DNA of 64,000 bases from Anaerolineales bacterium. Lineage in GTDB: Bacteria > Chloroflexota > Anaerolineae > Anaerolineales > UBA11579. The stretch covers positions 16,126-80,125 of the forward strand of contig JBBEBI010000041.1 in the NCBI GenBank assembly GCA_040882365.1, in the 5' to 3' direction. Shown piece after piece: positions 2,795-46,736 of this stretch. Each line of letters begins with the position of its first letter. The stretch's first letter is position 1. The notes beneath the pieces are model-generated. The model did not search any database, had not been told where the DNA came from, and saw only the letters and a list, made by a program, of their open reading frames with translations. Made by a program: the position numbers and the translations under genes.

Positions 2795-2797
2795 GGC

Positions 2798-7172: not shown

Positions 7173-7173
7173 C

Positions 7174-8457: not shown

Positions 8458-8463
8458 TGCGCC

Positions 8464-10280: not shown

Positions 10281-10283
10281 CTG

Positions 10284-11321: not shown

Positions 11322-11811
11322 GTAGGGGATCCCATTCCAATTGCACCTTGTGGCCTTGCACCCGCAGCGAGGGTCCGGGTTGGTCTTCTTTCAATAAGGT
11401 TAGGCCTTGCTCCAGGCAGGTGAGCTTGCAGATGTCGGCGATGTCTTCGGGATCGCCATTTAACTTATCGACGTGGACGCCGTTGTAACCAGCAGCCCGT
11501 ACCTGCACAAGCAGCTGCTGCACACGGCGCCGTGTTTTGCGATAAAGCTGCATGGAATGCTCGACGTAGTTGACTGTCAGGCGGGCGCGGCGGCTGATGC
11601 CCTGCGGGGTGATGATGTAGCGCAGCTTGCGGCGTTGGGCGCGCTTGACCTTCACATAGCCTTTGGCCACCAAGCGCTTCAAGTGCCAGTTAACCGTACC
11701 CACGGCCACTCCCAGTTGGGAGGCCAGGGAGGCCTGCGTAATATCGGGGTCGCTCTCGATCTGCTCCAAGAGCAGCATGTCGCGCGCGGTATCGGCTTTA
11801 GGGTCCGTCAT
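11311..11811 (-). CDS. Winged-helix regulator, EPS-associated MarR-like, with extra C-terminal domain of about 60 aa
   Basis: LLEQIESDPDITQASLASQLGVAVGTVNWHLKRLVAKGYVKVKRAQRRKLRYIITPQGISRRARLT fits the GxVNxxLKxLxxKGYVKV...KLxYxxTPxG pattern of EPS-locus MarR regulators. It is a paralogue of 51254..51712 and the first gene after a 50-bp gap. Confidence 0.6.
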   Translation of the reverse strand: MTDPKADTARDMLLLEQIESDPDITQASLASQLGVAVGTVNWHLKRLVAKGYVKVKRAQRRKLRYIITPQGISRRARLTVNYVEHSMQLYRKTRRRVQQLLVQVRAAGYNGVHVDKLNGDPEDIADICKLTCLEQGLTLLKEDQPGPSLRVQGHKVQLEWDPLREH

Positions 11812-11861: not shown

Positions 11862-13415
11862 CTATTCTTTGTGCATCCAATCCCAGAGCACGAACAGTAC
11901 TGCACTTAACAGCCCCAGGCCGATGACCTGATATAAATCCACGATAGGCCAGTCGAAATTCGTGTAGCGCCGTAGATACCAGGGGATGAACCAGGCTATC
12001 ATCAAAACGGCGCCTCCCATGGCCCGGCGTAACCAGGGGTCCCTTGTTTCGCGATACCACACCCAGGCCCAGGCGGCCAGGGCGATCTGGATGGCAGCAA
12101 AAGCGCTACGGTAACGCGGGCTATCCCAAAGGTCTCCCCCACCGCGATAGGAAGCGGTGAAACTCACCACCCAACTCGAGAGAAGCAACGCTCCGGGAAG
12201 GCGGTGCCATTCCTTTGAGCGCAAGGCCAAGAAAGTCGTATATAGCAGAAGGGCCAGAAGCAGGGTCCAGCCCACAGCCCGCCAAACGCCTATAGCAGTC
12301 CAAACCGTCGGCCCCGTGGCTACTACAGCTGCCGGTAATAGAGGGCGTAAGATCCCATAGGCAACCAGAAAAGGAATTTGCCCAAATAGCGGAAGGCGTT
12401 CGAACTGGCGCGCCACCCAACCCGAAGCGTTCTCGCTGACGTACGCTTGCCATCGGGCAGACTGGATCAACCAAAGGTTCTGCTCATCGGCGAGAAGAAT
12501 GAATCCGATCAGTATGACAAACGCAGCAGCAGCCAATCCGATCCAGACTTTGGGTGAGCGTAACCAGCGCCATTCGTCCAATGCCAACGCCGCCACGACC
12601 AACATAAAAATCAGCGAAGGCGTGAAAGCCCAGGTAAGCGGAATAGATAATAAGACCGGCGCCGCTAGCAATGCCAGTTTACCAATAGATCGCTTTTCAC
12701 GGAGGCGCAGAAGACCATACAGGGCAAGCGGCACCAAGAAAACGGTAAAGGCCTCGCGCATTTGCGAGGAACCCAGCAGCACGGCCTCAGGATACAGAGC
12801 CAATCCCCAGGCCGCTAAGTAGGCGACCTTCTCGCCCCATACACGCCGCGAAAAAGCCCAGGTGAAGGCGACCGCCAATCCCGAGACAGCCGCGGCCAGC
12901 GCGAGCACCAATAGCGGCTGATGCTCAGTACCGCCCAGATAGCGGTAGACAGCGGCGCTCAAGAACAGCAAACCCCCGTATTGATCGGTGGAACTAATTC
13001 CTTGAAATGAACTTAGCAGAGGTTGATCCGAGCGAGCAAGATTCCAGGCTGCCACGTCACGGTTATAGGCATCTTCCATCACATAGCCGGCCTGCTGCAC
13101 TGCAGTGTCATAGCCACCGGCGGGCAACGCAAATAACCACAGTGCGCCCATCGCGAGGCGAAGCAAAGCCGCGCCAATGGTTAACACCAGGAGCCATCTG
13201 GGTGGCCTTTCGCGGCGCAGAATCCGGCATGCGATCCAAAACAGCAGGGCGGCAAGAGCCAGTAGTGCCAGAAAGGACAGCCAGCTATTTACATTGGAAA
13301 AACGCGATGAAAACCAGGCTAAAAGAAATGCCAAGACTAATATTCCCCAACCAACCATGGCAATAAAGCTCCACGAATATTTTCTTGTTTTTGCGCGCGC
13401 TTTTCGTTTTGGCAT
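11862..13415 (-). CDS. Polytopic membrane protein, possible GT-C-type glycosyltransferase
   Basis: 517 aa with more than 10 hydrophobic spans. An early extracytoplasmic-loop acidic motif YVMEDAYNRDVAAWNLA resembles the DAxxxD loop motif of the two large paralogues below. An O-antigen polymerase/ligase-like role cannot be excluded. Confidence 0.35.
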   Translation of the reverse strand: MPKRKARAKTRKYSWSFIAMVGWGILVLAFLLAWFSSRFSNVNSWLSFLALLALAALLFWIACRILRRERPPRWLLVLTIGAALLRLAMGALWLFALPAGGYDTAVQQAGYVMEDAYNRDVAAWNLARSDQPLLSSFQGISSTDQYGGLLFLSAAVYRYLGGTEHQPLLVLALAAAVSGLAVAFTWAFSRRVWGEKVAYLAAWGLALYPEAVLLGSSQMREAFTVFLVPLALYGLLRLREKRSIGKLALLAAPVLLSIPLTWAFTPSLIFMLVVAALALDEWRWLRSPKVWIGLAAAAFVILIGFILLADEQNLWLIQSARWQAYVSENASGWVARQFERLPLFGQIPFLVAYGILRPLLPAAVVATGPTVWTAIGVWRAVGWTLLLALLLYTTFLALRSKEWHRLPGALLLSSWVVSFTASYRGGGDLWDSPRYRSAFAAIQIALAAWAWVWYRETRDPWLRRAMGGAVLMIAWFIPWYLRRYTNFDWPIVDLYQVIGLGLLSAVLFVLWDWMHKE

Positions 13416-13421
13416 GGTTAG

Positions 13422-16004
13422 CTAAGAGTCAGGAGCGGAACAGTTATCAAGTTTAGCGGATACCAGTAAAACTAGGGAGCCATCGGATTCCTTGACGATT
13501 ACGGCCGCAGCATCCAGGGTTTTGCCGCAATGAAAAACGTAAACATCCGAACTGGCGGGGAATTCCGCGTCTAGACTATCCAAGGGGAGGATAACCTCGC
13601 CCGGTTCCGGCCCTAGCAGGTAAAAAGTGAGGCGCGCGAAATCCATCGGCGAAACGAGGAGGAAATTTCTATCGGGTAAACCTTCATGCACGCGATAGTA
13701 ACGAGGGTGCAGGGCGCGGCCGCCAATTACATTTAGCCCGCCAGCCGTAAATAAATTAAGCACCCGTTGCTTATCCGTTGAATTCCCCAACGTGACGCGG
13801 GAGAGCGCATCGAGTACATGCTGCGATGATACCTTTGCGTAGCGCGGCACGTTTAGCGCTTCGATGATCGAAAACGAGGAACCTGCCATCAGGAGCAATA
13901 AAGCCGCGATAACAAGGGGCCAACGCCCAATGGATTGCGATTTGGGTTTTACTCGAGATTTCGGCTCAATGGGGACCAGCTTGGCAAGGAATTGTTTTAC
14001 TCGTGGGAGATTATGGAATAACAACAGGATCCAAATTACCAATTGCCCCAGCCCTAGGGTGTAATACAGGAGCACAGACCAATCCATGGGCAGGTTGTAC
14101 CGCCAGCCCGATACCCGGGCCAGCGCCAAATTGATTGTGAAGCCCAGACTGATGAACAGGGGCACCAATCCGACCCAGCCCACCTTCTTCCAAGCCACCG
14201 CCAGGCCGATCGCCACCAAAAGCAAGTTTGCAGCCATTGGTAAAACCGTTTCTCCCGGCAAATCCCCTTCCCAGCCGGGCCAAAAGGGTAATTCACGAAC
14301 ATGGGATTCCAGGTCTCTCAACTGCAGTGAAAGGGGCATCGCCATGAAGTTGAGCATCTGATTGCGCACGTAATTATCGGCCACAAAGCCGGCCACATAA
14401 CCCGGGTTCTGCAAGGTGAACTCGCGCACCCGCCCCATCTGGCGCGCGTAATACTCGCCCTCGCTCTCGCCAGGCAGGAAGGGGAGCACATAAGTGCCGG
14501 GCGTGAAGCTGTAGCGATTGGCCAGGAACCCGGACACCACCGCGTCTTCGATGGCCCATTGGCCTATGAGGGCGCGGTTGCGCAGGATCCAAGGACTGGC
14601 AACGAGAAGAACCCCCAACACAAACAAGGCGGCTGGCCGCCATGCCAGTCGCCAACCCCAAACCAAAACAACCAATAGCAAAACGAAGGGGATAAGAGTC
14701 AGGCTTTGCGAGCGCAACAGGATGGACCAGCCCAGCAGGCCCCCAACCAACAACGCTGCCATCCAGTTGCGGGGCGAACTCCGCAGCCAGCTTACGACTG
14801 CCAGCGCTAACGCGGCCATTAACATCGCCGTGGGCAAATCGGCCATCAACAGTCTTGCGTGCGAGGTATTGATCACATTCCCGAGGACAATTGAGTTCGC
14901 TTCGCGCAGAATGACGATTCCCGCTAACAATAAACCGGAAAAACGATTGTGGAGCTTCGCGCCGAGCAAATAGAGAAATGCAGGAAATAGCGCCAGGCCG
15001 AGCACTTGGCCGATAACCACCCCGTCGTAATCGCCTCCCAAAAATCCTTCCAGCCCTGCCAGGAAAAGCACGTAGGCCGGGCGCCGAATAGCCACCTGAT
15101 CACCAAAACGAAAACCTTCACCGATGAGCACGTTGTTGGCGATCGCATCGTGATTGAAGGCATCCGAGAGTGGGAAACTCTGATAGTTCGGTGCCACTGG
15201 TGGTGAACTGTAATACGTGGAAGGCGCTGGTTGCATAAGCCAAATGCCTGCAGCGATGAGCCACACCATGCCCGCCAGGATCAGGTCAAGCCGCTGCTCC
15301 AGAAACCTTCCCTTTCGCCACCGTCGCCAAATGGCAATTGCCACCAAGAGGATCAGCGCTGCGATCAACAAACACAGAAGCACTTGACTGCTCAGGATCG
15401 GCGTCCCGGGAGCATTCCAAACAGTGGCATCGAACCCCAGACCGAGGCCGGTCAGCGCAACCAGCACAACAAATAAGATGAGAAACGTGAAAACGAAAAG
15501 CCCTAACCGTAATTTTTCTTTTTCTTGGTCAAGTCCCCGCGTGTTAATTCCATAACGCATAACCAAAAACGTGGGCAACCAAAAAAGGGATACCACAATT
15601 CCATAAAAAAATAGGGGGCGAATTCGAATGATGTATAACGAGATCGAACCAAAGAGGCTAACTGCTCGCGCTTGAGGCAGGAAGAACAGGGCCCAGCAAA
15701 AAACCAGAACTGCGCAAACAAGCAACAATGAAAACCAGAACCGGCTTGTGGAGCGCAAAAATGAACTTAGCCGATCAATTGCATTCTTTATCCATTTCCC
15801 TCGGGTTACGCTGATAACTGCGAAACTAAAAATGAGTGCGAGGGCGAACAGTAATAAGGCCAGAAGGATACGCTCAAGTGAATAGCCAAGAACAACAGCC
15901 CTGGAAGCTTCGCTTGGCTCGGCCAGCGACCAGGCAAAACAAAACCAACCGACCAGCGCAGAGACGGTCATGCTGACGCGCAGGGCTATTCGTTTTGCCG
16001 GCAT
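13422..16004 (-). CDS. Large polytopic GT-C-like (PMT_2/ArnT-like) glycosyltransferase candidate with C-terminal soluble domain
   Basis: 860 aa. An N-terminal multi-TM module of about 270 aa is followed by the loop motif FPLSDAFNHDAIANNVLIGEGF, more TM spans, and a C-terminal non-membrane domain (GRALHPRYY...FARLTFYLLGPEPGEVILPLD...). Clear paralogue of 21547..24180. Confidence 0.5.
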   Translation of the reverse strand: MPAKRIALRVSMTVSALVGWFCFAWSLAEPSEASRAVVLGYSLERILLALLLFALALIFSFAVISVTRGKWIKNAIDRLSSFLRSTSRFWFSLLLVCAVLVFCWALFFLPQARAVSLFGSISLYIIRIRPLFFYGIVVSLFWLPTFLVMRYGINTRGLDQEKEKLRLGLFVFTFLILFVVLVALTGLGLGFDATVWNAPGTPILSSQVLLCLLIAALILLVAIAIWRRWRKGRFLEQRLDLILAGMVWLIAAGIWLMQPAPSTYYSSPPVAPNYQSFPLSDAFNHDAIANNVLIGEGFRFGDQVAIRRPAYVLFLAGLEGFLGGDYDGVVIGQVLGLALFPAFLYLLGAKLHNRFSGLLLAGIVILREANSIVLGNVINTSHARLLMADLPTAMLMAALALAVVSWLRSSPRNWMAALLVGGLLGWSILLRSQSLTLIPFVLLLVVLVWGWRLAWRPAALFVLGVLLVASPWILRNRALIGQWAIEDAVVSGFLANRYSFTPGTYVLPFLPGESEGEYYARQMGRVREFTLQNPGYVAGFVADNYVRNQMLNFMAMPLSLQLRDLESHVRELPFWPGWEGDLPGETVLPMAANLLLVAIGLAVAWKKVGWVGLVPLFISLGFTINLALARVSGWRYNLPMDWSVLLYYTLGLGQLVIWILLLFHNLPRVKQFLAKLVPIEPKSRVKPKSQSIGRWPLVIAALLLLMAGSSFSIIEALNVPRYAKVSSQHVLDALSRVTLGNSTDKQRVLNLFTAGGLNVIGGRALHPRYYRVHEGLPDRNFLLVSPMDFARLTFYLLGPEPGEVILPLDSLDAEFPASSDVYVFHCGKTLDAAAVIVKESDGSLVLLVSAKLDNCSAPDS

Positions 16005-16020
16005 TACCGCGACGCTGCCA

Positions 16021-17442
16021 TTAGTCTACAATCTTGTAATCGGCTACCCGTCTTTCCAGGGCACGCCAGATGTCGGGGGGCGCCTCCCCGGCCGCCAAGT
16101 GCTCGGCGATGAAACGGCCCATGTCGGCGCAATGGTCTGAGTTGTTGTAGTTATACATCCCGATGCGGCCCGTGGTCAGCAAATTAGGTACTTGTCGTAA
16201 TTTATCGCTAACCAGTTTCATCTTATCCGCATAAGCCAAATCGTAACGCGGGTAGAAATTCTTTCTCCGAATCACAAAGCTGCCCAGTACTTCTTCACGG
16301 CTTATCAATCCCGTTTGAACCAACCCGGCGACTACACGTTCAGTCAAATCCGCATCGCTGGCCAGCCACAGTTCGCTGCCTTCCGCGGCGGTGAAATCTG
16401 CCGTGATCACCGTGCGGTCCGCAGGTCCCAGCTCTGGATTCATTTGCTTTTGCTCAAACAGGCGGCTGAACACCACATTGCGTTGAGGAAAGAAGATCCA
16501 TTGATCCGCGAAGACCAGGGGGCGCTTGATTTGTATGTAAGCCAAGATGAGATGGCGGAACTGCAGCCCATCCACCGCCTGGTTGAATTCGGCATCCACC
16601 TCGCCAAACACCATGCGCCCTATAACAGGAAGGGGAAGGGAAGAGACCAGGTAGTCGCATTCGAATTGCCTAAGCTGGCCTTGATGGTTCGCTGTAACAC
16701 TGGCAACTTTGCCCGCCTTCATTTTCAAGCCTTTTACATCGACTGAAGTGAGCACTTCCCCGCCGTGGGCGCGGATGCCTTCCGCCAGCGCCTGCGGCCA
16801 ATCCCCAAAACCGGCGCGGGGGTAATAGAAGAACTCGGCATTTGTATCCGCAGTTTCCTTCTTCAACCCCAGCAACTTCAGGATGAGTTCCAAGCCGCCC
16901 GAAGCCGGAAGGCGCGTACGCGCCATTTCGGGATGCAAGCTTGCCGGGTCGCCCCATACCTTATCTGCCAGAGGTTCGAAGACCAATTCGTAGGTCGGGC
17001 GACCGAACCGGCGGATGATGTATTCCTCGTAGGAACGCGGTGCGCGGCGATCCAACAGGCCTTTGACGAGTTCTACCCCATAACCCAGGCCGAGGCTCAG
17101 GAATCGGGCTGGGCCGAGCACTATTGCCAGGTTGCCAAGCTTCAATGGGTAATCTACCAAATGACCCTCGATGTACAGCCGGTTCTTTTTTGGTAGTTTG
17201 AGCAACCGGTCGCCCATCAAGCTAGTGACTTCGTCGAGGACGCCGGGGATGACGGAATACAGCTTGTGGGCGCCGTAATCCAGCACAAAGCCGTCGCGCT
17301 CAAAGCTGGCGCAAAGCCCGCCGATGACGGATTCCTTCTCGAGAACCGTCACCTGGTATTTGCCTGTTCGGGCGAGGAAGTAACCGGCGGCCAGCCCTCC
17401 CACTCCGGCGCCGAGGATGACGATCTTGTCTTTACTTGCCAA
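16021..17442 (-). CDS. FAD/NAD(P)-binding oxidoreductase (amine-oxidase / UDP-galactopyranose-mutase-like fold)
   Basis: N-terminal KIVILGAGVGGLAAGYFLAR...VTVLEKESVIGGLCASFERDGFVLDYGAHKL (GxGxxG plus the GG motif). TTG start at 17442 is preceded by GGAG. Confidence 0.7.
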   Translation of the reverse strand: MASKDKIVILGAGVGGLAAGYFLARTGKYQVTVLEKESVIGGLCASFERDGFVLDYGAHKLYSVIPGVLDEVTSLMGDRLLKLPKKNRLYIEGHLVDYPLKLGNLAIVLGPARFLSLGLGYGVELVKGLLDRRAPRSYEEYIIRRFGRPTYELVFEPLADKVWGDPASLHPEMARTRLPASGGLELILKLLGLKKETADTNAEFFYYPRAGFGDWPQALAEGIRAHGGEVLTSVDVKGLKMKAGKVASVTANHQGQLRQFECDYLVSSLPLPVIGRMVFGEVDAEFNQAVDGLQFRHLILAYIQIKRPLVFADQWIFFPQRNVVFSRLFEQKQMNPELGPADRTVITADFTAAEGSELWLASDADLTERVVAGLVQTGLISREEVLGSFVIRRKNFYPRYDLAYADKMKLVSDKLRQVPNLLTTGRIGMYNYNNSDHCADMGRFIAEHLAAGEAPPDIWRALERRVADYKIVD

Positions 17443-17451
17443 CGTATCTCC

Positions 17452-17478
17452 AGAAATAGAGCGGCTCAGAGCCGCCCT
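17452..17478 (-). terminator. Putative intrinsic terminator / RNA-stability hairpin between the methyltransferase and FAD genes
   Basis: Minus strand: AGGGCGGC-TCTGA-GCCGCTCT (8-bp stem including one G-U) followed by ATTTCT. It sits immediately 5' of the GGAG-TTG start of the FAD gene. Confidence 0.35.
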
Positions 17479-17509
17479 CGGAATTCACCGACGCAAATGA
17501 TAACTGGGA

Positions 17510-18439
17510 TTACTGCTTTTCGGCGATGACCAACACCTGTCCCATCCAATAAGGGATCTGCAGATAAGTTAATCCCAGGCGTTTTACCAGCCATCCTGCG
17601 GCCTTGGCGACCGGCTTCAGGTAAGCCTCCATGCGGAAGAGGATGTAGCCTAGCTCTAAGGTTTGCCAATGGCGGCGGGTTTGCACTACCCGGAAACCTA
17701 ATTCCCCCAGCATGCGCGCCAGGGTTGGGCGCGTAAAGTAATAAAGGTGTACGGAAAGTAAAAACACCCAGCGGCGCCCCATTAGGCGGGCGACAAAGGA
17801 GCGAATGTCCGGGTAATTGACCACCAATAACCCACCCGGCTTAAGCGCGCGGGCGCATTCGCCCAACGTGGCTTTGGGATCAGGCGTATGCTCCAGCACG
17901 TCCCAAAGGGTGACCACATCGAAAGAAGCCGAAGACAGCTTCATATCGAAAATGGTCCCAGGAACGATGTGTAGGCCGTAATTCCGATTGCCCCATTCAC
18001 ACAGCCAGCGGTTGGGCTCGCAGCCGGCCATCTCCCAACCAGTTTTCTGCGCCACCGAAAGGAAGGAGCCGCCCGCCGTTCCTACATCCAGCAGGCGGCC
18101 GCGCTGCGGTCGAAAGTGTTCGATGATCTTCAGCGCCTTGGCAAAGGTGCGCTCGCGCCCGGCCGCCTGCGAAACGAACAACTCATCGCTGCCAGCGCTG
18201 TAACCCTCTAAGACGACATCACTGCGCAGGCGGGGGTTGAGGTACATCAGCCCGCAGCGTTCGCAGCGGACCAGCTGATCCAAAAGAACTTCATCGCCTG
18301 AGGAGCGGAAGGTGTTAGTGATCTCCTCCGGTTTGGCCTCTTCGTAGCGCGGCGGATAAATGACCTCATAATCATCCGTCCCACATAAATTGCATGGGAC
18401 GGATTCGAGGAGGGTTTGATATTGTTGGGCCTTTGTCAT
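17510..18439 (-). CDS. Class I SAM-dependent methyltransferase with N-terminal zinc ribbon
   Basis: CNLCGTDDY...CERCGLMYLNPR (two CxxC pairs) followed by motif I LLDVGTAGGSFL and VVTLWDVLEHT. Paralogue of 47444..48376. Confidence 0.8.
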   Translation of the reverse strand: MTKAQQYQTLLESVPCNLCGTDDYEVIYPPRYEEAKPEEITNTFRSSGDEVLLDQLVRCERCGLMYLNPRLRSDVVLEGYSAGSDELFVSQAAGRERTFAKALKIIEHFRPQRGRLLDVGTAGGSFLSVAQKTGWEMAGCEPNRWLCEWGNRNYGLHIVPGTIFDMKLSSASFDVVTLWDVLEHTPDPKATLGECARALKPGGLLVVNYPDIRSFVARLMGRRWVFLLSVHLYYFTRPTLARMLGELGFRVVQTRRHWQTLELGYILFRMEAYLKPVAKAAGWLVKRLGLTYLQIPYWMGQVLVIAEKQ

Positions 18440-19377
18440 TGATTGCGGCTGCGGCGAAGGAAATTTTTGACTTCCTGAAAGCGAGTATTGATCGCATTGA
18501 GGGAAAGGCCGATGCCCAGGGCAATCAGACCGGTAGGAAGGCTAAAGAGTATGATGCCACCCAAGATGCTGTTGGGCAAGCCTTCCTGACCAAATAGATT
18601 CATCAACCGCAATACACCAGCAACGGCAGCCATCAGCCAGAAAACCACCGCCACGGCGCCGAACACGCGCAGCGGGCGGTGGTCGCGCAGCAAGATTGCG
18701 GCGGTCAACATGATGCGATACCCATCGGCAAAGGGGCGCAATTTGGAATGGCTATCCTCCGGGCGGCTGCGGTAACGGATCGGCACCTCCACGACGCGCA
18801 ATCCCTCGGCCAGCGCTTGCAAAGTGATTTCGGTTTCCACCTCAAAGCCAGAGGTAAGCACTGGCACGCTCTCTACGAAACGGCGATTTACGGCGCGGTA
18901 GCCGGAAAGCACATCGCGGAATTTGGTACCGAAGAGCCGATTGATGTAGCTGACGATCATGCGGTTGCCAAACTGGTTCATGCGTTTCATGTTGGCGTCC
19001 GACGCGGCCGCCAGGCGCTCCCCAACCACCATATCAGCCTCGCCCGCCAACACGGGCGCGATCAGCGCGTGGATGTCGTCCGCAAAATAGGTGTCATCCC
19101 CGTCCACAACGACGATCACATCTTCTCTCAGCTCATCGAAGATGGCGCGTAAGACATTTCCTTTCCCCAGGGCCGCCACCCGGCGCACCTCCGCGCCGGC
19201 ATTGCTTGCCAGTTCCGTGCTCGCGTCGGTGGAGGCATTGTCGAATACGTATATGGCGGCATCGGGAAGCGCCTTGTGAAAACCCTGCACCACACCCGTG
19301 ATCGTAGTCGCCTCGTTATGGCAAGGAATGGCGACTGCCAATTGTTGTTTGCGGGAGAAAATCCTGCGCGGGGCCAT
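18436..19377 (-). CDS. GT2 polyprenyl-phosphate glycosyltransferase (GtrB/ArnC/DPM1-like)
   Basis: LAVAIPCHNEATTI...YVFDNASTDAS...VVVDGDDTY (DxD). Two C-terminal TM helices (VFGAVAVVFWLMAAVAGVL; ILGGIILFSLPTGLIALGIGLSL) give the GtrB/ArnC architecture. The start is moved to ATG 19377 (MAPRRIF...), directly after the upstream stop at 19380-19382. The track start at 19458 would overlap that gene by 79 nt. Confidence 0.8.
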   Translation of the reverse strand: MAPRRIFSRKQQLAVAIPCHNEATTITGVVQGFHKALPDAAIYVFDNASTDASTELASNAGAEVRRVAALGKGNVLRAIFDELREDVIVVVDGDDTYFADDIHALIAPVLAGEADMVVGERLAAASDANMKRMNQFGNRMIVSYINRLFGTKFRDVLSGYRAVNRRFVESVPVLTSGFEVETEITLQALAEGLRVVEVPIRYRSRPEDSHSKLRPFADGYRIMLTAAILLRDHRPLRVFGAVAVVFWLMAAVAGVLRLMNLFGQEGLPNSILGGIILFSLPTGLIALGIGLSLNAINTRFQEVKNFLRRSRNQ

Positions 19378-19379
19378 GC

Positions 19380-20009
19380 CTAAGCCTTCCTGAGCAGCAT
19401 CCATTGATTCATGCCCATTGAGAATTCCTGATATTGCTCGACCGACAATCCGGCACAATCGGCCAGAGCCTTCAGGCCTGTTTGTGTAAGGTACAGCTTA
19501 TGGTCTTTGATCTCCTGACGATCGAAAATTCCAAGGCGCGCCAACTTCTTCAATACAAAATGGCCTTGCGGAGCCGGCGTGGTCAGGCCGGCCAAACCGT
19601 CCTTGCGTAAACACTTTGCGATCAAATCAAAATGCGCCTGCGGATCAAGGAGATGCTCGATGACGGCCAGGGAGAGAACTCCATCATAGGTTACTTTTGG
19701 TATCCACGTAGTGAGGTCCGCTTCGATGAGGTCAAATCCGTGGGTTTCGCTGGTAACCGATAAATCCACTCCAGTGAACTCGACTCCAGGATAGCCTTGG
19801 CTTAAGGCAGCCAAATTGCGTCCCCAAAATCCGCACCCCAATTCGAGGCACTGGAGTTCCTTGCCCGGGTTCTCGGAAACCAACAGGTCGAGAAACGAAC
19901 GAGCCCGAAACAAGCGGCGGCGGATGGCGAAATCTTCCAGGCCACGGAAGGTACGCTGCTGACCGTATGAATGAGACCGCTTTGCAGTGGAAATCTGTTT
20001 GGCCATCAT
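19380..20009 (-). CDS. Small class I SAM-dependent methyltransferase
   Basis: Motif I CLELGCGFWGRN, then YDGVLSLAVIEHL. ATGA overlap (20006-20009) with the radical SAM gene. Confidence 0.7.
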   Translation of the reverse strand: MMAKQISTAKRSHSYGQQRTFRGLEDFAIRRRLFRARSFLDLLVSENPGKELQCLELGCGFWGRNLAALSQGYPGVEFTGVDLSVTSETHGFDLIEADLTTWIPKVTYDGVLSLAVIEHLLDPQAHFDLIAKCLRKDGLAGLTTPAPQGHFVLKKLARLGIFDRQEIKDHKLYLTQTGLKALADCAGLSVEQYQEFSMGMNQWMLLRKA

Positions 20010-21490
20010 CTACTTAGCCAGCGCAACATCAACGCCCGATAGGGCACCATTTCCATCTTGGTTTCAAAGCGGCGCCTCAGAAAATTCCAGGGCTGACGCA
20101 GCAATTTGAAAGGATGATAACGCAATTTCCACCACAGGAAATGGGCGTATAGGCGCACACGATAACGATTAAGGCGGGCATAGTCGGCGCGCCAGGTGGG
20201 GCTGAAGTTCAATTCTGAGAGCGTCGTATAACCCGAGAACTGCTCATGGATCGACGAACCGGGCACCGGAGTAATGACAAACAGCGCAATCTCATCTACG
20301 CCCACGCGGGTAAGGTCCCGCGCAAGATCCCAGGTCGTTTGCAGATCCTCATCCGTTTCACCCGGATATCCGAGAACAAAGCAGGCCTGCGAGCGGATGC
20401 CCACCTGGTTCATGCGCTTGACCAACCGGACCGCATGCTCAAGGTTGAACGGCTTGCGCATCAGTTTCAGCAGGCGCGGTGAGCCCGTCTCCGGAGAGAT
20501 AGAAATATAGCGGCACCCCGCCTTGGCCATCAGGTCGATGGTTTCCTCGTCGCGCATGGTTTCCACTTTTGTGCCCGCCGCGATCTTCCAGGTCACCTTC
20601 AACCGGCGACAGATGAGCTCGTTGCACATCTCGCGAATGCGTCGATCGGAAATTGTGGGATCCAAATCTTCGATGTGGAATTCGTGCACATGCAGCGTCT
20701 TAGCAAAATGCTCGATCTCGGCGACCACGTTGCCAGCGGAACGCGGGCGCCACTTCTGGTTGTTGGTGGCTGGGACTACGCAGAAGCCGCACGGGTAGGG
20801 GCAGCCGCGCGAGGTCAGCAGTGGCAGATAGCGGCGCGCCGATACGGGCCCGTGGGCGAAGCGCAAAGACCAGTAATTATCGAGGGGGAATAGATCCCAG
20901 GCTGGGAAGGGCAACGCGTTAAGTTCCTCTTCAGAAAGATATCCGTTTGGAGGGCTGTAGAACTTAGACGAACCCAGCCCGTCGATCCCACGTAGAGTTT
21001 CCTCGGGCGCCGAGGGATTCAGCGCTCCCAGCAACCGGATCGCCCTACGCTCAGACTCGCCGGTAAGAATGAAATCGGCGCCTGCCGCGTAGAATTCCGC
21101 TGCCACGTGGGAGAGCGCATAGGCGGTCACCGCTTGGGTGTTCTCCACCACGATCACCGGCACCTGGGGGAGCGCCTGCTTTATGGCGCGGACGATCGAC
21201 ACCGTGGAAATATGGTTGGTCAGGTTTATGGCGTAGACAAAAACCGCGATGACCTCTTTGGGCAATTGCTCGACGATCTGCGCCTCGGCGAGACCGAAGA
21301 ACTGGAATTTGCCTTCCGCACGGTTCCGGCGCGGGGCCGCTGCATAAGCGTCGATCACCTGAACTAGGTAACCGCCCTGCCTCAGCGCGGCCGCCAGGTA
21401 AGCAAGACTGATGGGCATGTACACGATCCCGGTCGTGAACGGGTCGCTACGCTGCACAACGAGATTGGGATTGATCAGGGCAATGGACAT
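20006..21490 (-). CDS. Cobalamin-binding radical SAM enzyme (class B, methylase-like)
   Basis: The N-terminal region of about 150 aa has a B12-binding-domain layout (IALINPN...PISLAYLAAALRQGGYLVQVIDAY...PVIVVENTQ...). The radical SAM cluster motif is LLTSRGCPYPCGFCVVP (CxxxCxxC), followed by ISISPETGS and FVLGYPGETDED. Confidence 0.85.
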   Translation of the reverse strand: MSIALINPNLVVQRSDPFTTGIVYMPISLAYLAAALRQGGYLVQVIDAYAAAPRRNRAEGKFQFFGLAEAQIVEQLPKEVIAVFVYAINLTNHISTVSIVRAIKQALPQVPVIVVENTQAVTAYALSHVAAEFYAAGADFILTGESERRAIRLLGALNPSAPEETLRGIDGLGSSKFYSPPNGYLSEEELNALPFPAWDLFPLDNYWSLRFAHGPVSARRYLPLLTSRGCPYPCGFCVVPATNNQKWRPRSAGNVVAEIEHFAKTLHVHEFHIEDLDPTISDRRIREMCNELICRRLKVTWKIAAGTKVETMRDEETIDLMAKAGCRYISISPETGSPRLLKLMRKPFNLEHAVRLVKRMNQVGIRSQACFVLGYPGETDEDLQTTWDLARDLTRVGVDEIALFVITPVPGSSIHEQFSGYTTLSELNFSPTWRADYARLNRYRVRLYAHFLWWKLRYHPFKLLRQPWNFLRRRFETKMEMVPYRALMLRWLSR

Positions 21491-21514
21491 AACAAGAACG
21501 CCTCATACGAGGCG
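21491..21514 (-). promoter_or_regulatory. Hairpin immediately 5' of the radical SAM start codon (SD-sequestering or terminator-like)
   Basis: Minus strand: CGCCTC-GTAT-GAGGCG followed by TTCTTGTT-ATG. The only GAGG near the start lies in the 3' arm of the stem. A TATAAT hexamer lies 10 nt upstream of the hairpin. Confidence 0.3.
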
Positions 21515-21546
21515 CGGGAGAGAATTATACCTAGTACGAGATACGA

Positions 21547-24180
21547 CTATTGAGGCGCACAAATGAACGCATCGGAGTCGTCCGCCAGTAAGTCGTGCCC
21601 GCCGTCATCGAGAAAGACAACCGCGGCCGCCCGAAAGTAAGTGCTTTCTGAACAACCCAGTACCAGCACGTTTACCGCGTTCGGAAAATACCCGGGCGGG
21701 GCTTCGAGTGGCAGGGCCACTTGATCATTCTCTGGACCAACGACCCAAAAAGCCATCCTTGAGAAGGGCAATGGATTGTATGCCGATTCGCCTCCCGACT
21801 CCCCAATCCCGGCGGGATAGAAACGCGGGTAAAGGGCGCGCCCCCATAGGGCTTTCGCTCCTCCTTGCCGCAAGAAGCCTTGCAGGTCCAAGCCGGTTAG
21901 CTGGGCCAACTCGGAATCCTCCCATTGAGCTTGGGCAGTGGCCGCATCCAAATCGAGGAAGCGGGCGGGCAACACAAGCTCTGACAAGGGGAGCAGCAGG
22001 CCGGCCAGCAGGATAGCGGCGGCCCAGCGCGGCAGCTTCTGTTGGCGCCAGGAAGGCGCTTTTTGCTGCCTGGCAGCCTTACCCTTAGCCAGCCTCGACC
22101 CAAAAAAGTAAGCCCAGAGCCACAAAGTGAGCTGCGCCAAACCCGCACAGTAGAACAAGATCAGCACCCAATCTACGGGAAGAATCAAGCGCCAACCGGA
22201 TACGCGGGCTACAGCCGTGCTTAGGTTGTAGAAGACATGTATTCCAATTGGCACCAGGGTTAGCCAGCCGGCTTTCTTCCACACAGCCCCAACGCCGATA
22301 GCGACCAGTGTCAGGTTGAACACCAGGGGCAGCCAGGCTTCACTTGGGAAGGTGCCATCCCAGGTTTGCCAATAAGGCGTCTCGCCGATATAGGTGTCCA
22401 GCGAGCAGCATTCGCTCCACAGGCGATCCTCAGCACCCAGCCAATAGGGCCGCAGGTTATAGAACGTGACGATCTTGTCGGCTAGATCGAAACGCACGGG
22501 CAAGGCCAGCAAGGAAGACACTTCATTGTGGAAGAAGTGAGCGGTGACAAAGGTCGCGACTTCTCCGGGATGTGTGAATGTGAATTGGGCCACTTTGGAA
22601 AAACCGAGCGATACATAATCAGCAACCGCCGTGCCCTCGGGGAATCCGGGGTCGGCCAATTCGGGCGTGAGGCTATATTGCTTGGCCAGGTACAAAGCCT
22701 GCAAGGGCTGCGAATATCCAAATTGACCCGTGTATTGATAGTTTCTCCACATCCATGGGAGCGCCGCAAGCAGGAACCCCAGCAAGAGAAGCCCTGCATA
22801 CGCCAGCCTGCGCACAGTTCTTCCCGCCTGCCAAAGAGCCAGAAACAAGGCGATTGGCAGAAAGATTATCGTTTGCGAACGAAGCAGCATCAGCAATCCC
22901 AGGGCGCCGCCTACCCAAAGCGGCCAGTGCAGGACGCGCCGATCTGATTGCAGCCAGCAAAGGACGAGCAGGGTGAACAGCGCAATGCCCAGCGCGGCCG
23001 GCAGATCCGTCATCAACAATTTTGAATGAGAGACATTGATGTCTCCGGAAAGGGCGATCGCATTCTGCTCACGGAAAATCATAGCCAGCGCTAGCAGAAA
23101 CCCCGTCAGGCGGTGATGCAGGAAGCTCGCCAAGGAAAAGAGAACTGCGGGAAAAAGAGCTAGTACCATGATTTGGGCCGCAATTACATTCAAATAGTTC
23201 TGGCCTACCAGCGCGTGGAGCACACCCAGGAAGAAGCTGTAGAGCGGCTTCTCGATGACGTCGTTAAAGCCTTCGCCGACCAAGAGGCTCTGCGCAGAAA
23301 GATCGTGAGTGGCGGCATCCGAGTGTGGGTAATACTCGAAATTCGGCGGGCGGGGAGTTGGGGAAAAGAAAGTGGGAGTGAGCGTTTGCGTTTGCCACGT
23401 CCAGATAGCAAAAACCCACAAGACCAGCGCGGCCAGCAAGTCAATGCGGGAAAGCCGCCAGCCAAACCTTTTCTCAATGAAACGCAAGACAAAATAAAGC
23501 AGACCCGCGCCCAACCATGCCAGCAAGACTTGCGTGGCTAGCAGGGGAACTCCCGGGGTGTCCCAGCCGGCGCGGTCGGGAACCAGCCCGAATCGGGTAC
23601 CCCACATGAAGACGGCGATGACAGCGATAGCGCCCAAAGCAGCGACAGTCGGAAGCCAGGCTTTGAAATCAAATGTGGAACGCTTGGGTCTGCGAAGCAA
23701 AGGGGCACAGATTAATATTTGAATGCTGAACAAGAAAAGCCACATCAGAGCAGGAAATAGCCGAAGCAGCCAGGCGCGTACGAAATTGTCGGTGAACTTG
23801 AAGGTGAGGAAACATAAATATAAAGAAAGGACGGAAAAAAATAAAGCAGCACCAATAATGGCTGCATAGACGACCGGATTATTTACCGCGGCCAGGATTT
23901 TCCTTTCAATGGATGGCAAGGCCTTGTGTCTTTTCCATCTCAACCAGAACAGAAGGGCAAACAGTACAGCGATAGCTAATAACCCTACTACTAGTAGCCA
24001 TCTGGTTGGTGAAAGGCCCAGCAGCCAGGCTGACGCGCCTTCGCTGGGCGCGCCGAAAACGAGGGTTATCGCCCCCAGTGCTTCCAGCGCCGGCAGCAGC
24101 AAAAAGAGCCCCAGCAACCTGGCCGTGCCTTTTTGCTCTCTGCGAGATTCTAGGTTACGGGCAGTCAAAGCTGCGCTCAA
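21547..24180 (-). CDS. Large polytopic GT-C-like glycosyltransferase candidate, paralogue of 13422..16004
   Basis: 877 aa with the same tripartite layout. Loop motif YPHSDAATHDLSAQSLLVGEGF. C-terminal domain GRALYPRFY...FSRMAFWVVGPENDQVALPLE... aligns by eye with the 860-aa protein. Confidence 0.5.
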   Translation of the reverse strand: MSAALTARNLESRREQKGTARLLGLFLLLPALEALGAITLVFGAPSEGASAWLLGLSPTRWLLVVGLLAIAVLFALLFWLRWKRHKALPSIERKILAAVNNPVVYAAIIGAALFFSVLSLYLCFLTFKFTDNFVRAWLLRLFPALMWLFLFSIQILICAPLLRRPKRSTFDFKAWLPTVAALGAIAVIAVFMWGTRFGLVPDRAGWDTPGVPLLATQVLLAWLGAGLLYFVLRFIEKRFGWRLSRIDLLAALVLWVFAIWTWQTQTLTPTFFSPTPRPPNFEYYPHSDAATHDLSAQSLLVGEGFNDVIEKPLYSFFLGVLHALVGQNYLNVIAAQIMVLALFPAVLFSLASFLHHRLTGFLLALAMIFREQNAIALSGDINVSHSKLLMTDLPAALGIALFTLLVLCWLQSDRRVLHWPLWVGGALGLLMLLRSQTIIFLPIALFLALWQAGRTVRRLAYAGLLLLGFLLAALPWMWRNYQYTGQFGYSQPLQALYLAKQYSLTPELADPGFPEGTAVADYVSLGFSKVAQFTFTHPGEVATFVTAHFFHNEVSSLLALPVRFDLADKIVTFYNLRPYWLGAEDRLWSECCSLDTYIGETPYWQTWDGTFPSEAWLPLVFNLTLVAIGVGAVWKKAGWLTLVPIGIHVFYNLSTAVARVSGWRLILPVDWVLILFYCAGLAQLTLWLWAYFFGSRLAKGKAARQQKAPSWRQQKLPRWAAAILLAGLLLPLSELVLPARFLDLDAATAQAQWEDSELAQLTGLDLQGFLRQGGAKALWGRALYPRFYPAGIGESGGESAYNPLPFSRMAFWVVGPENDQVALPLEAPPGYFPNAVNVLVLGCSESTYFRAAAVVFLDDGGHDLLADDSDAFICAPQ

Positions 24181-26227
24181 TAGGCATGAATAGTTCTATC
24201 GCCGCGTCCTTGTAATCGGCCACCGATTCATAATACGCCAACAGCGGGGTTGTTACCCAAGTAACCCAGGCATTGTTTTCTTCATTCAGACTGTCCCCAA
24301 CGCTTTCGATGTCGGGCTCTTTATACAAAATAGCCTCGCGCTCAGACACGATGAGCGAAAAGCGGCCGGAAGCCAGGTCGGAACGGACCTCCTCAAAAAA
24401 AAGTTCGTTGCCCGCCAAGGCCTGATCCATAACATATTTTTTTTCGTAATCAACAACCAACGGCACGTCACCCACCAGCCCAAAGGTAATGAGCTGGCGC
24501 TGATCCATAAAAAGGACCTCGCCATATTGGCGTGCGCAGGCTACATAGTCCTGAATGCGGCCGAGGACAAATTCGGTGCGCTCCTGAGACGGCCGCTCAA
24601 GCGGCTTGCCCGCCACCATTGGCATGAAAGCCGGAATGATGACAATGATTGCAAGTAGCCAGCGCACAGTCACCGCGCTTTTTTGCAGCCTAGAGAGATT
24701 GGGTGCCAGCCCTCCTTCCCAGGCCATCGCGGCCACCAGCACTAGGCCCACCAGGAACATGTCCATGTTATGCAAGTCTGTGCCTCCGCCCACCTTGACG
24801 CTGGCGATAACGCCTACGACCAGGAGGGACCCCAAGCCCAGCACGGTCACAATACGCTGCCACTGCACTGTCTTCCATAGCTTTTCCTTCGCCAAGTAAA
24901 TAAGCAAAACGATCAAGGGCAGCGTGGCAAGGGCAAGGCCTAGCAGGATGCCTGGGGGATAGATCGAATTGGGAAGCAAACGTTCCCAGAGGAAGGGCTG
25001 CTGGGTGGAAACGGCCTGCAAACCCTGCAGGGTTTCCACGGACGGGGTCGCAGGAACAGGGGCAGCATCACCTGCCACCAGGAAGGGGAAAAAGCCCACG
25101 ACGATACCAACAAGGATGGGCAGCCCTTTGCTCCAGATTCCAGCCAGCCCAAGGGCCAAGGCGCTGAGCCAATCGCGCCAAACTAATCTGCCCCGCTCAA
25201 GGACGGCGTCTCCGAAAGCCAACAAGACAACCCAAATGCCAGCCGCAAATCTCCAGCTGTAGCGGCTGAGGCCCGCGTAATGGCCGGCGATGTAGGCCAA
25301 CGGCAAGGCTAGCCAGATGGGTTTGCGCCGCGCCACCGCCACTAGCATCGCCGCCAGCACCAGCGGCGAGTAGACGGGCCCCTGGTTTAGGAAAATGAGT
25401 GCCCACAGGCCAGCCAGCAGCCACTGATTTCGCCACCTGATCCCCGGCCAGAACGCGGCCCACCCCAACACCGCATAAGGCACGGTCACCAGGATGGCGC
25501 CCCACAGGCGAACAGCCCAGATGGGAACATGCGGAATGAGAAAAGGGAGACCCCACAGCGTTTGCCGACCGGGATCGATCCAGGCAAATATGGGCTCTTC
25601 TCCGGAAATGTTGTAACGCTCGCTGCCAAAAGCGATTGAATAGTCCCAAAGGCGATTCCCTTCGGACCAGTGCAGAGCAAACGGATAATCGCTAACCAAA
25701 ACGAATGATTCGGCCAATACCAATATTGCTCCCAGCACAAGGCCAGCCACCAGGAACGTTGGCCACTCAACAATTTCCTTTTTGGAGGTGGTAAGCAAAA
25801 AGGCACTAACAATCAACACAAGGCTGAATAGAAAAAGACGGAAAAACAATCCAGTGAAGAGCCCGCCCCAAGAGGAGTAAAACACAAACCAGGCCAGGAA
25901 CAATAGTACGAGAAGTATTAGGGGCCAGCGCCAACCACCAAGGTTTCGCCGCCAAGCCAACAAGCGATTTTCCAACACTTTCCAGCCTGGCAGGTAGAGC
26001 CAGGCGAATACCAAGGACAACAATCCGGCGAAAAATAGATAGAAGGCCAGTAAGGCAGCTGCCCATTTTATTGATAATCTCCCCAACCAGGAGCCAGACC
26101 CCCAGCCGAGGGAAAATAGCTCAATCCCGGCCAGAATTAACAAAAGGGCAACCGCGGCAAGCAAAATTGCCCGCTGATAGGGTGGCATCGCAGCCGGTCG
26201 ATTAGGGACGGAGTTCTTATGCGCCAT
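24155..26227 (-). CDS. Polytopic membrane protein with C-terminal soluble domain (function unknown, possibly glycan transferase/polymerase)
   Basis: 690 aa, with more than 12 hydrophobic spans and a C-terminal non-membrane region of about 170 aa (EVLFMDQRQLITFGLVGDVPLVVDYEKKYV...). 26-nt overlap with the downstream 877-aa gene. Confidence 0.35.
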   Translation of the reverse strand: MAHKNSVPNRPAAMPPYQRAILLAAVALLLILAGIELFSLGWGSGSWLGRLSIKWAAALLAFYLFFAGLLSLVFAWLYLPGWKVLENRLLAWRRNLGGWRWPLILLVLLFLAWFVFYSSWGGLFTGLFFRLFLFSLVLIVSAFLLTTSKKEIVEWPTFLVAGLVLGAILVLAESFVLVSDYPFALHWSEGNRLWDYSIAFGSERYNISGEEPIFAWIDPGRQTLWGLPFLIPHVPIWAVRLWGAILVTVPYAVLGWAAFWPGIRWRNQWLLAGLWALIFLNQGPVYSPLVLAAMLVAVARRKPIWLALPLAYIAGHYAGLSRYSWRFAAGIWVVLLAFGDAVLERGRLVWRDWLSALALGLAGIWSKGLPILVGIVVGFFPFLVAGDAAPVPATPSVETLQGLQAVSTQQPFLWERLLPNSIYPPGILLGLALATLPLIVLLIYLAKEKLWKTVQWQRIVTVLGLGSLLVVGVIASVKVGGGTDLHNMDMFLVGLVLVAAMAWEGGLAPNLSRLQKSAVTVRWLLAIIVIIPAFMPMVAGKPLERPSQERTEFVLGRIQDYVACARQYGEVLFMDQRQLITFGLVGDVPLVVDYEKKYVMDQALAGNELFFEEVRSDLASGRFSLIVSEREAILYKEPDIESVGDSLNEENNAWVTWVTTPLLAYYESVADYKDAAIELFMPIERSFDCP

Positions 26228-40210: not shown

Positions 40211-40321
40211 TCAGAGCTCAATTTTAGTGAATAAAACAATGTTTATGGAATGAGACGTTTTTTACTCTATCACTTAATAGCCAGATGAAATCTTAGTCAC
40301 TCGCTGGCCTGTATCGTTCAA

Positions 40322-40528: not shown

Positions 40529-40539
40529 GGCAGTATGGG

Positions 40540-41808: not shown

Positions 41809-41824
41809 AGCAGCTTGCCAGATC

Positions 41825-43872: not shown

Positions 43873-43881
43873 GTAATTCCT

Positions 43882-46730: not shown

Positions 46731-46736
46731 CAGAGG

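Follow-up and report, generated by a model that had tools for sequence, protein, structure and literature searches.

This report concerns a cassette of probably sugar-modifying genes within a 64,000-nucleotide (nt) stretch of DNA from an uncultured Anaerolineales bacterium (assembly GCA_040882365.1, contig JBBEBI010000041.1, positions 16,126 to 80,125 of the forward strand); the whole of this stretch is called "the window" here. The cassette lies inside a run of nine consecutive minus-strand genes and is narrower than that run. It comprises the genes for an 877-residue glycosyltransferase of the GT-C type, a radical S-adenosylmethionine (SAM) enzyme, an optional small methyltransferase, a membrane-anchored glycosyltransferase of family GT2, a zinc-ribbon methyltransferase, and a flavoenzyme that resembles UDP-galactopyranose mutase (UGM). 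With moderate confidence, we read it as a donor-supply module for extracytoplasmic glycosylation, which would furnish a modified, probably furanose and methylated, polyprenyl-phosphate sugar. The observations presented are family and fold identities, the presence or absence of the block, gene order across phyla, and recurrent adjacency to GT-C genes; statements about function rest on homology, predicted folds, and gene-neighborhood statistics.

The nine-gene locus

An earlier note on this DNA, made from the sequence alone, described nine consecutive minus-strand genes at positions 11862–26227, and all nine were found at the coordinates, with the sizes and families, that it gave. In ascending order of position, the open reading frames (ORFs) encode 517, 860, 473, 309, 340, 209, 494, 877, and 690 residues:

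11862–13415, minus strand: 517-residue PMT_2-type GT-C protein, core (Pfam PMT_2)
13422–16004, minus strand: 860-residue GT-C protein, core clade, occurring with or without the cassette (predicted fold)
16021–17442, minus strand: 473-residue UGM-like flavoenzyme, core cassette member (full-length UGM alignment)
17510–18439, minus strand: 309-residue zinc-ribbon SAM methyltransferase, core cassette member (Methyltransf_23)
18436–19377 (longest ORF to 19458), minus strand: GT2 of the polyprenyl-phosphate sugar synthase type (ArnC/DPMS/GtrB/AglJ-like), about 313 residues (Glycos_transf_2)
19380–20009, minus strand: 209-residue class I SAM methyltransferase, optional member (Methyltransf_23)
20006–21490, minus strand: 494-residue radical SAM enzyme with a putative N-terminal B12-binding-type domain (Radical_SAM)
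21547–24180, minus strand: 877-residue GT-C protein, cassette-linked clade, proposed cognate extracytoplasmic transferase (paralog of the 860-residue protein)
24155–26227, minus strand: 690-residue GT-C-fold protein, STT3/AftA-like, core, with no Pfam family (predicted fold)

Several of these genes had been thought to be translationally coupled, and their tight spacing is consistent with coupling. Overlaps of 4 nt join the GT2 gene to that of the 309-residue methyltransferase (18436–18439) and the radical SAM gene to that of the 209-residue methyltransferase (20006–20009); further overlaps occur at 24155–24180 and 26217–26227, and the intergenic gaps inside the cassette are at most 67 nt. The longest ORF of the GT2 opens at a TTG codon (19458). 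Because the orthologs of this protein carry only about 12 residues ahead of a conserved IAVAIPC motif, its real start is most likely the ATG at 19377, which lies 2 nt past the stop codon of the small methyltransferase gene and gives a protein of 313 residues.

The 860-residue protein is 100% identical to protein WEA61_07045 of the NCBI metagenome-assembled genome (MAG), and an identical contig is also present in a Logan assembly. The NCBI gene models at 13422–16004 and 24155–26227 (minus strand) are N-terminally shorter (712 and 622 residues) than the 860- and 690-residue ORFs; full-length homologs and the high confidence of the structural models at their N termini support the longer forms. 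The nine genes belong to a run of about 45 same-strand genes that extends from 661 to 52620.

The cassette as a unit in Anaerolineales

Which of the nine genes belong together? To answer this from gene content, related loci (each denoted by L and a number) were compared. Among Anaerolineales loci, the six-gene block from the 877-residue GT-C to the flavoenzyme is present or absent as one piece, and the trio encoding the 690-, 860-, and 517-residue proteins stays without it. Two loci are instructive: L003 and L004 (L004 is part of record CP075526.1, 2.24 Mb long) retain the order GT4, 690, 860 ortholog, 517, MarR, epimerases, Wzm, Wzt, and KpsC/S-like, and they are without exactly the six genes from the 877-residue GT-C to the mutase-like enzyme, such that the 690 gene adjoins the 860-clade gene. 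The gene order of the window is kept in L002 and L006–L016. L021 has the cassette and an 877-type gene without an 860-type gene. In L010, L012, and L014, the 877-type gene accompanies the four core genes, and no homologs of the remaining genes of the cluster could be detected on the available sequence.

A neighbor-joining tree of the 860/877 family shows a clean split. Every member of the 877 clade is encoded directly upstream of a radical SAM gene; the 860 clade comprises the genes downstream of the mutase-like gene together with the orthologs from the cassette-less L003 and L004. A chimeric deletion, by recombination between 877- and 860-type genes, was considered as the origin of the cassette-less loci and was rejected, as the proteins of L003 and L004 match the 860 clade from end to end.

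The earlier note had proposed that donor tailoring serves up to four GT-C transferases. For the 877-residue clade this stands, since it co-varies with the tailoring genes; for the 690/860/517 trio it does not, since the trio persists in cassette-less loci. The best explanation is that the trio forms a GT-C core belonging to a Wzm/Wzt surface-glycan pathway of Anaerolineales, to which the cassette is a portable accessory. The core GT-Cs must then take their donors from a source other than the cassette.

The composition of the cassette varies in minor respects. Among the genome loci, tblastn detected the 209-residue methyltransferase only in some from Chloroflexota (L005, L006–L008, L013, L017, and L021), and in L002 an uncharacterized protein of 463 residues takes its place. 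Thus, where two methyltransferases had been assigned to the module, the 309-residue protein proves to be a core member and the 209-residue protein an optional one. In L005/L017 (2862–4505 and 749–2749), which represent one Chloroflexota lineage, a sulfatase-family protein (LtaS/EptA-like) and a 666-residue polytopic protein are encoded between the radical SAM enzyme and the rest of the cassette.

Conservation across phyla

When one genome of each GTDB species was scanned for the mutase-like protein, 49 loci were obtained, and gene order was counted in the 32 that had at least 4.5 kb of upstream sequence. Genes for the radical SAM enzyme, the GT2, the 309-residue methyltransferase, and the mutase-like enzyme follow one another in this order on one strand in 30 of the 32, at 43–87% identity and in at least eight phyla, an arrangement far above chance. 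Among the hosts of this four-gene core are Chloroflexota, Planctomycetota (Planctomycetales), Nitrospirota (Ca. Magnetobacterium among them), Omnitrophota, Lentisphaerota, Acidobacteriota, Desulfobacterota, and one cyanobacterial MAG; a Rokubacteria locus is incomplete. Of the two other informative loci, one has its radical SAM gene 9.5 kb off, and one has the flavoenzyme gene alone. The earlier note had let its proposal hang on the gene set recurring outside the source genome, as it does.

Large membrane proteins recur beside the cassette as well. Of the 41 loci with the cassette, 32 encode, within 4 kb of it, a polypeptide that has 400 or more residues and seven or more hydrophobic segments; seven of the nine exceptions are truncated by a contig end. 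Outside Chloroflexota, the GT-C neighbors match PMT or PMT_2 at or above the cut-off in L028, L038, L039, L040, and L043, and GT87 in L046. No flippase or sugar-nucleotide synthesis gene was found to adjoin the cassette consistently in the other phyla.

The reciprocal scan, performed on metagenomes and anchored on the radical SAM enzyme, yielded 80 loci. Six of these hold a close ortholog (at least 52% identity), and in five of the six, cassette genes come after it: the GT2 in four, together with the 309-residue methyltransferase and the mutase-like gene to the extent that the contig continues, and the small methyltransferase in one more. B12-domain radical SAM proteins of less than about 31% identity are mostly without these partners (L114 is an exception) and served as a rough negative control.

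Diverged versions of the methyltransferase, mutase-like, radical SAM, and GT2 families (25–47% identity) occur together in permuted order in L066 (2904–7564) and L073 (4687–9168); the association of the four families is older than the conserved order. In four metagenome loci (L078, L092, L105, and L120), arrays of three to five paralogous genes for B12-domain radical SAM proteins were seen, with GT2 homologs in L092 and L120. Three loci from Planctomycetales and Omnitrophota (L037, 11440–15573; L045, 11417–14739; L050, 11939–15324) encode a radical SAM-SPASM protein between the cassette and a YfhO-like polytopic protein, and L037 has an additional methyltransferase beside it. The SPASM protein and the extra methyltransferase point to further tailoring of the donor.

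The mutase-like flavoenzyme

The 473-residue protein matches the Pfam families Amino_oxidase, NAD_binding_8, and GLF, the last at 28.8 bits (cut-off 26.3). It had been regarded as a generic FAD/NAD(P) redox enzyme, a view that its relatives do not bear out: it aligns over its full length with the eukaryote-type UGMs 4dsg and 3ute (residues 5–449 against 10–451 of 4dsg), a weak match by score (E-value 4.6e-12, 48.7 bits). Eight residues (H59, R177, R327, Y397, R426, Y432, N434, and D436) are invariant in 51 orthologs, and they cover the UGM His loop, both diphosphate-binding arginines, and the equivalents of the active-site Tyr and Asn. The flap arginine of UGM was at one point thought to be absent, which would speak against a nucleotide-sugar substrate; this idea was rejected, as R177 aligns with R182 of AfUGM and R176 of TcUGM and is invariant.

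Judged from its sequence, the FAD protein is a mutase-type enzyme and not an oxidase. The conservation of the diphosphate-binding residues makes a nucleotide sugar the likelier substrate for its step. The earlier suggestion that the sugar is oxidized and/or ring-contracted is thereby divided: ring contraction is the chemistry to be expected from kinship with UGM, and net oxidation is not.

Among named models, TIGR00031 (Glf) reaches only 34.9 of the 303.75 bits that its cut-off demands. The highest scores come from models of the PRK07208 type ("hypothetical protein"), which also fall under their cut-off and represent an uncharacterized group. Public annotations of the cassette proteins are generic or wrong; the records label the mutase-like protein "FAD-dependent oxidoreductase" or "protoporphyrinogen oxidase", and others are called "hypothetical".

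The probable polyprenyl-phosphate sugar synthase

The GT2 is the sole membrane-anchored member of its family within the window. It matches Glycos_transf_2 at 60 bits, ends in two hydrophobic transmembrane helices, and has a D92-G-D94 motif that is invariant among its orthologs. When the ortholog profile was compared with the PDB, it matched DPMS (5mlz, E-value 4e-13), GtrB (5ekp), and ArnC, the last end to end with the membrane helices included (residues 7–293 against 8–296; 308 positions; ArnC structures are described in PMC12690121). The assignment to the GtrB/ArnC/DPM1 type, made in the earlier note, is thus borne out by these alignments, by the C-terminal pair of helices, and by NCBIfam matches. 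The latter were to AglJ (220.5 bits, cut-off 325), the Halo Dol-P-hexose transferase model (91.9 bits, cut-off 375), and PpgS (64.8 bits, cut-off 370). As every one of these equivalog cut-offs is missed, the protein is of the polyprenyl-phosphate synthase type, but none of the named enzymes is its ortholog.

The methyltransferases and the radical SAM enzyme

The 309-residue methyltransferase (Methyltransf_23, 99.5 bits) is well conserved, with 54–70% identity across phyla. Four cysteines of its N-terminal zinc ribbon (C16, C19, C59, and C62) are invariant in 24 of 24 orthologs. PDB comparisons gave only generic class I methyltransferases and a marginal match to a sugar 3-C-methyltransferase (E-value 0.005), which is too weak to distinguish O- from C-methylation.

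Residues C230, C234, and C237 of the radical SAM enzyme (Radical_SAM, 79 bits) form a CxxxCxxC motif that is invariant in the orthologs. The window protein itself matches the B12-binding family at 22.7 bits, under the cut-off of 32.1, and 21 of 27 orthologs match it with E-values of 0.01 or less (best, 3.1e-9). Because its best NCBIfam score is 148 bits against a 575-bit cut-off, we place it in no named subfamily. There is a partial match to HpnJ (107.6 bits, residues 220–418), and its relatives in the PDB are AprD4, TsrM, OxsB, CysS, and TokK. TsrM, CysS, and TokK are B12-dependent methylases, OxsB is a ring-contracting enzyme, and AprD4 is a B12-independent diol dehydratase. A scan for amphipathic helices that might associate the methyltransferases, the radical SAM enzyme, and the flavoenzyme with the membrane gave unremarkable values, which were not used.

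The GT-C proteins

Are the four large membrane proteins indeed GT-C enzymes, as the earlier note supposed? Predicted folds (860 and 690), paralogy (877), and a Pfam match (517) all argue that they are. The AlphaFold2 model of the 860-residue protein has a predicted local distance difference test (pLDDT) score of 90.1, and its top Foldseek matches in the PDB are STT3/AglB/PglB, AftA, ALG3, ArnT, and PimE, with probabilities of 0.99–1.0; every confident neighbor is a GT-C enzyme. For the 690-residue model (pLDDT 89.7), the 14 best matches are likewise all GT-C: STT3 (TM-score 0.42–0.43), AftA, and ArnT. The Foldseek comparison that the note had recommended for these two proteins thus returned, among confident matches, only GT-C folds. 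The 877-residue protein, with PMT_2 at 21.9 bits (under the cut-off), is a paralog of the 860-residue protein (34% identity, E-value 8e-99); the latter has no Pfam match itself, and nine of 40 family members match PMT_2. The 517-residue protein has about nine hydrophobic segments and matches PMT_2 at 26.9 bits (cut-off 26.1), as do 13 of 13 orthologs (best E-value 5e-8). PDB sequence searches with the 860-residue protein and with the 517-family profile found no match, leaving fold comparison and Pfam as the informative methods.

Both families have conserved acidic residues. In the 860/877 family, S280-D281-A282 and D286 are conserved to at least 90% where a loop helix begins, after the transmembrane helix at 234–257; in the 517 family, D115 and D120 are invariant in a long loop. 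Profile-profile comparisons of the 517 and 690 families with the 860/877 family detected no significant relation. A recent duplication giving rise to all of the GT-Cs was accordingly rejected in favor of three independent lineages (517; 690; and 860/877). We speculate that the STT3/AftA-like 690-residue protein might alternatively be a polymer ligase.

Proposed pathway and alternative explanations

How might these proteins act together? The following scheme goes beyond the observations: its substrate, its sequence of reactions, the furanose form of the product, the kind of methylation, and the glycan that serves as acceptor are all inferred. The mutase-like flavoenzyme would convert a nucleotide-hexopyranose to its furanose form, and the membrane-anchored GT2 would put the sugar onto polyprenyl phosphate. 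On the cytoplasmic side, before or after this loading, the sugar would be modified by the zinc-ribbon methyltransferase, the optional small methyltransferase, and the B12-domain radical SAM enzyme, most likely through O-methylation and through C-methylation at an unactivated carbon. A flippase encoded elsewhere than in the cassette would turn the lipid-linked sugar outward, and the 877-type GT-C would then move it onto the glycan exported by Wzm/Wzt. The methyltransferases and the radical SAM enzyme are placed at the donor stage, whether nucleotide- or lipid-linked, because GT-C enzymes add sugars outside the membrane, without SAM, and because the modifying genes co-vary with those of the synthase and the GT-C.

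A bolder form of this scheme is possible, and we hold it to be doubtful. It specifies a lipid-linked, methyl-modified hexofuranose that the radical SAM enzyme C-methylates or rearranges on the lipid, and it regards the four-gene core as a horizontally mobile "donor factory" recruited by at least three GT-C families (877-type/PMT_2, GT87, and YfhO-like) in at least eight phyla.

Several points weigh against the cassette being a donor-supply module. Both the GT2 and the mutase-like enzyme fall under NCBIfam equivalog cut-offs, and the closest solved relative of the radical SAM enzyme is AprD4, a diol dehydratase and no methylase. The GT-C models have low Foldseek TM-scores (0.29–0.43, with about 0.3 for the 860-residue protein), yet all of their confident matches are GT-C; the low value for the 860-residue model is probably due to an additional bundle of helices at the N terminus, about 230 residues long, and to a beta domain at the C terminus. 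Among the cassette neighbors in other phyla, the YfhO matches in L037, L045, L050, and L052 are sub-threshold (19.5–27.7 bits against 28.5), and two polytopic proteins have no Pfam match of any kind; two loci, L018 and L033, have the cassette without a large polytopic neighbor within 4 kb. The absence of the cassette from L003 and L004 holds for the loci themselves. Finally, no flippase gene of the GtrA, SMR, or MATE type was seen in or beside the cassette in the window; the cassette itself contains no small polytopic ORF, and its intergenic gaps are too short to hold one. The other transporter-type proteins in the minus-strand cluster are only Wzm and, 20 kb away, a PglK/MsbA-type exporter, which is a possible flippase for a lipid-linked sugar.

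Could the methyltransferases and the radical SAM enzyme instead act on the growing polymer in the cytoplasm, for example by installing a methylated terminus that the carbohydrate-binding domain of Wzt would read, with the GT2 and the GT-C forming a separate, ordinary side-chain system? The Wzt of this cluster carries a Wzt_C domain, and the carbohydrate-binding domains of Wzt from E. coli O8/O9a recognize terminal modifications, often methyl groups; moreover, the many other methyltransferases encoded in the window suggest that methylation is common in this glycan. Against this reading, the cassette-less L003 and L004 still have a Wzt with Wzt_C and the neighboring methyltransferase. Outside Chloroflexota, tblastn found no Wzm or Wzt homolog within 10 kb of the four-gene core, and the order and tight spacing of the genes for the 309-residue methyltransferase and the GT2 are kept in 30 of 32 loci. 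We judge action on the polymer to be unlikely. A little less likely again is that the cassette makes a membrane glycolipid as its end-product, with the head group tailored on the lipid as HpnI, HpnK, and HpnJ do on bacteriohopanepolyols, and that the GT-C neighbors are unrelated envelope genes. Hopanoid side-chain tailoring does pair a GT2 (HpnI) with a B12-type radical SAM enzyme (HpnJ); the partial HpnJ match described above and the lack of a flippase gene in or beside the cassette in the window fit such a product. Against it stand the adjacency of at least three different GT-C families in different phyla, the strict co-variation of the 877 clade with the cassette, and the end-to-end alignment of the GT2 with ArnC, together with its matches to models of Dol-P and Und-P (dolichyl- and undecaprenyl-phosphate) sugar synthases.

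The flavoenzyme and the radical SAM enzyme might also act on the lipid carrier itself, saturating or methylating the polyprenol to create a dedicated carrier. The B12-type radical SAM methylases HpnP and HpnR, which act on lipids, are among the NCBIfam matches, and the FAD-binding N terminus of the flavoenzyme is shared with CrtI/HpnE-type isoprenoid desaturases. That resemblance is confined to about the first 70 residues, whereas the likeness to UGM extends over the full length and the sugar-nucleotide-binding and catalytic residues are invariant; we therefore regard modification of the carrier as very improbable.

Relation to known systems

Donor supply by the cassette, as we propose it, has close counterparts. 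In GtrA/GtrB/GtrC of Shigella and Salmonella, and in CsbB/GtcA/YfhO and GacI/GacL of Gram-positive bacteria, a membrane GT2 makes a polyprenyl-phosphate monosaccharide and a GT-C adds it to an exported polymer; these three-component systems also serve polymers exported by Wzm/Wzt-type ABC transporters. They employ an unmodified hexose or N-acetylhexosamine and a small flippase, whereas the cassette has the mutase-like enzyme and the B12-domain radical SAM enzyme, along with one methyltransferase or two, and no recognizable flippase in it or beside it.

The Arn pathway (ArnC, ArnD, ArnE/F, and ArnT) offers a second parallel, in which ArnD deformylates the lipid-linked product of ArnC before ArnT acts. 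As might hold for the cassette, a modified sugar is placed on undecaprenyl phosphate by a GT2 of the ArnC type, an edit follows, and a GT-C performs the transfer. The sugar (formylated 4-amino-4-deoxy-arabinose, Ara4FN), the edit (deformylation), and the acceptor (lipid A) all differ from those of the cassette, and there is no ArnD-like deacylase here.

Two of the cassette enzymes can be compared individually. The flavoenzyme shares with Glf/UGM the full-length alignment, the His loop, the two arginines, and the active-site Tyr and Asn residues, and differs in missing the TIGR00031 cut-off. The radical SAM enzyme shares a CxxxCxxC core, and probably an N-terminal B12-type Rossmann domain preceding it, with class B enzymes acting on sugars or lipid-linked sugars (GenK, Fom3, OxsB, and HpnJ) and with the B12-independent AprD4; unlike GenK, Fom3, OxsB, and HpnJ, it stands outside all named subfamilies.

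Lipid-linked furanoses also have precedents. The pentofuranose system of Citrobacter youngae O1/O2 consists of PPPRS, a MATE protein, and GT136, to which the ORF13 epimerase is added (Kelly et al., PMC11127046), and the mycobacterial decaprenyl-phosphate-arabinose system employs UbiA, DprE1/E2, and Emb/Aft (PMC11127046). As may be the case for the cassette, a polyprenyl-phosphate-furanose is remodeled in the cytoplasm while lipid-linked, before its transfer by a GT-C to a glycan that an ABC transporter has exported; AftA is, moreover, among the structural neighbors of the 690- and 860-residue proteins. In contrast, those donors derive from phosphoribosyl pyrophosphate (PRPP) through a UbiA-type synthase and are tailored by epimerization, whereas the cassette would use a GT2 acting on a nucleotide sugar, a UGM-type mutase as the source of the furanose, and methyltransferases and a radical SAM enzyme for tailoring.

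The notion that the donor is remodeled before transfer by a GT-C is thus consistent with the cassette but is not new as a concept, as ArnD, DprE1/E2, and the ORF13 epimerase of Citrobacter attest (PMC11127046). The novelty is that of a widespread, uncharacterized variant of a known strategy, not of a new category. The earlier note knew of no characterized system with this gene combination, and our literature search, whose coverage fell short of all journals, also found none; searches on PRK07208 and on lipid-linked galactofuranose or hexofuranose donors, with the same coverage, gave nothing relevant.

GT-C enzymes diversify cell surfaces through the sugars that they attach on the outer side of the membrane, as in serotype conversion of O-antigens, the mycobacterial arabinan, and polymyxin resistance. 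To our knowledge, the lipid-linked donors described so far are plain hexoses, 4-amino-4-deoxy-arabinose (Ara4N), galactosamine or its N-acetyl form (GalN(Ac)), and PRPP-derived pentofuranoses. If the module does couple a UGM-type mutase, SAM methyltransferases, and a B12-domain radical SAM enzyme at a polyprenyl-phosphate synthase, the chemistry of lipid-linked donors would be widened. It would also give the large PRK07208 group of flavoenzymes and a new subfamily of B12-domain radical SAM enzymes a testable function, and it would provide a first handle on the assembly of envelope glycans in Anaerolineales and other poorly cultured phyla.

The surrounding glycan cluster

The genes that follow the nine-gene block on the minus strand are given by Pfam as follows:

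5583–11811, minus strand: KpsC/S-like transferase, Wzt (with a C-terminal carbohydrate-binding domain), Wzm, two NDP-sugar (nucleoside diphosphate sugar) epimerase/dehydratases, and a MarR-like regulator

This segment is syntenic in most of the Anaerolineales loci that were compared. Wzm (ABC2_membrane), Wzt (ABC_tran and Wzt_C), and multiple GT1 and GT2 genes in the window together mark ABC-transporter-dependent assembly; no initiating phosphoglycosyltransferase was seen in the window. The run at 661–52620 also codes for many methyltransferases, NDP-sugar epimerases and dehydratases, an aminotransferase, and two NeuB-type nonulosonic-acid synthases.

Directly after Wzt, a 529-residue protein with a KpsC/KpsS-type Capsule_synth domain is encoded (5583–7172, minus strand); it is syntenic in nearly all related Anaerolineales loci and suggests a linker or terminator that is Kdo-like (resembling 3-deoxy-D-manno-oct-2-ulosonic acid) or made of another ulosonic acid. 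The two NeuB-type synthases lie in the segments 1730–4752 and 41825–50579 (minus strand) with two UDP-GlcNAc 2-epimerase-like genes, a CMP-sugar cytidylyltransferase, and a PseB-like dehydratase, and the surface glycan probably contains one or two nonulosonic acids.

Positions 40001–46730 have a lower GC content (0.48–0.52, compared with 0.55–0.60 elsewhere) and may be a separately acquired sub-cluster. The PglK/MsbA-type exporter, a fused ABC protein, is encoded at 44844–46730, and two ORFs without a Pfam family are found at 42925–44844.

A BtuF/FecCD-type uptake operon with a cobalamin riboswitch at its head (Rfam, 57.5 bits) lies at 52785–55067 on the plus strand. Its transcription diverges from that of the glycan cluster, to which the gene for the B12-domain radical SAM enzyme belongs. 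Regulators of the MarR/HTH_24 type are encoded at 11311–11811 and 51254–51712 (minus strand) inside the same-strand run, and the first of these is kept between the GT-C and the sugar-nucleotide genes in related loci.

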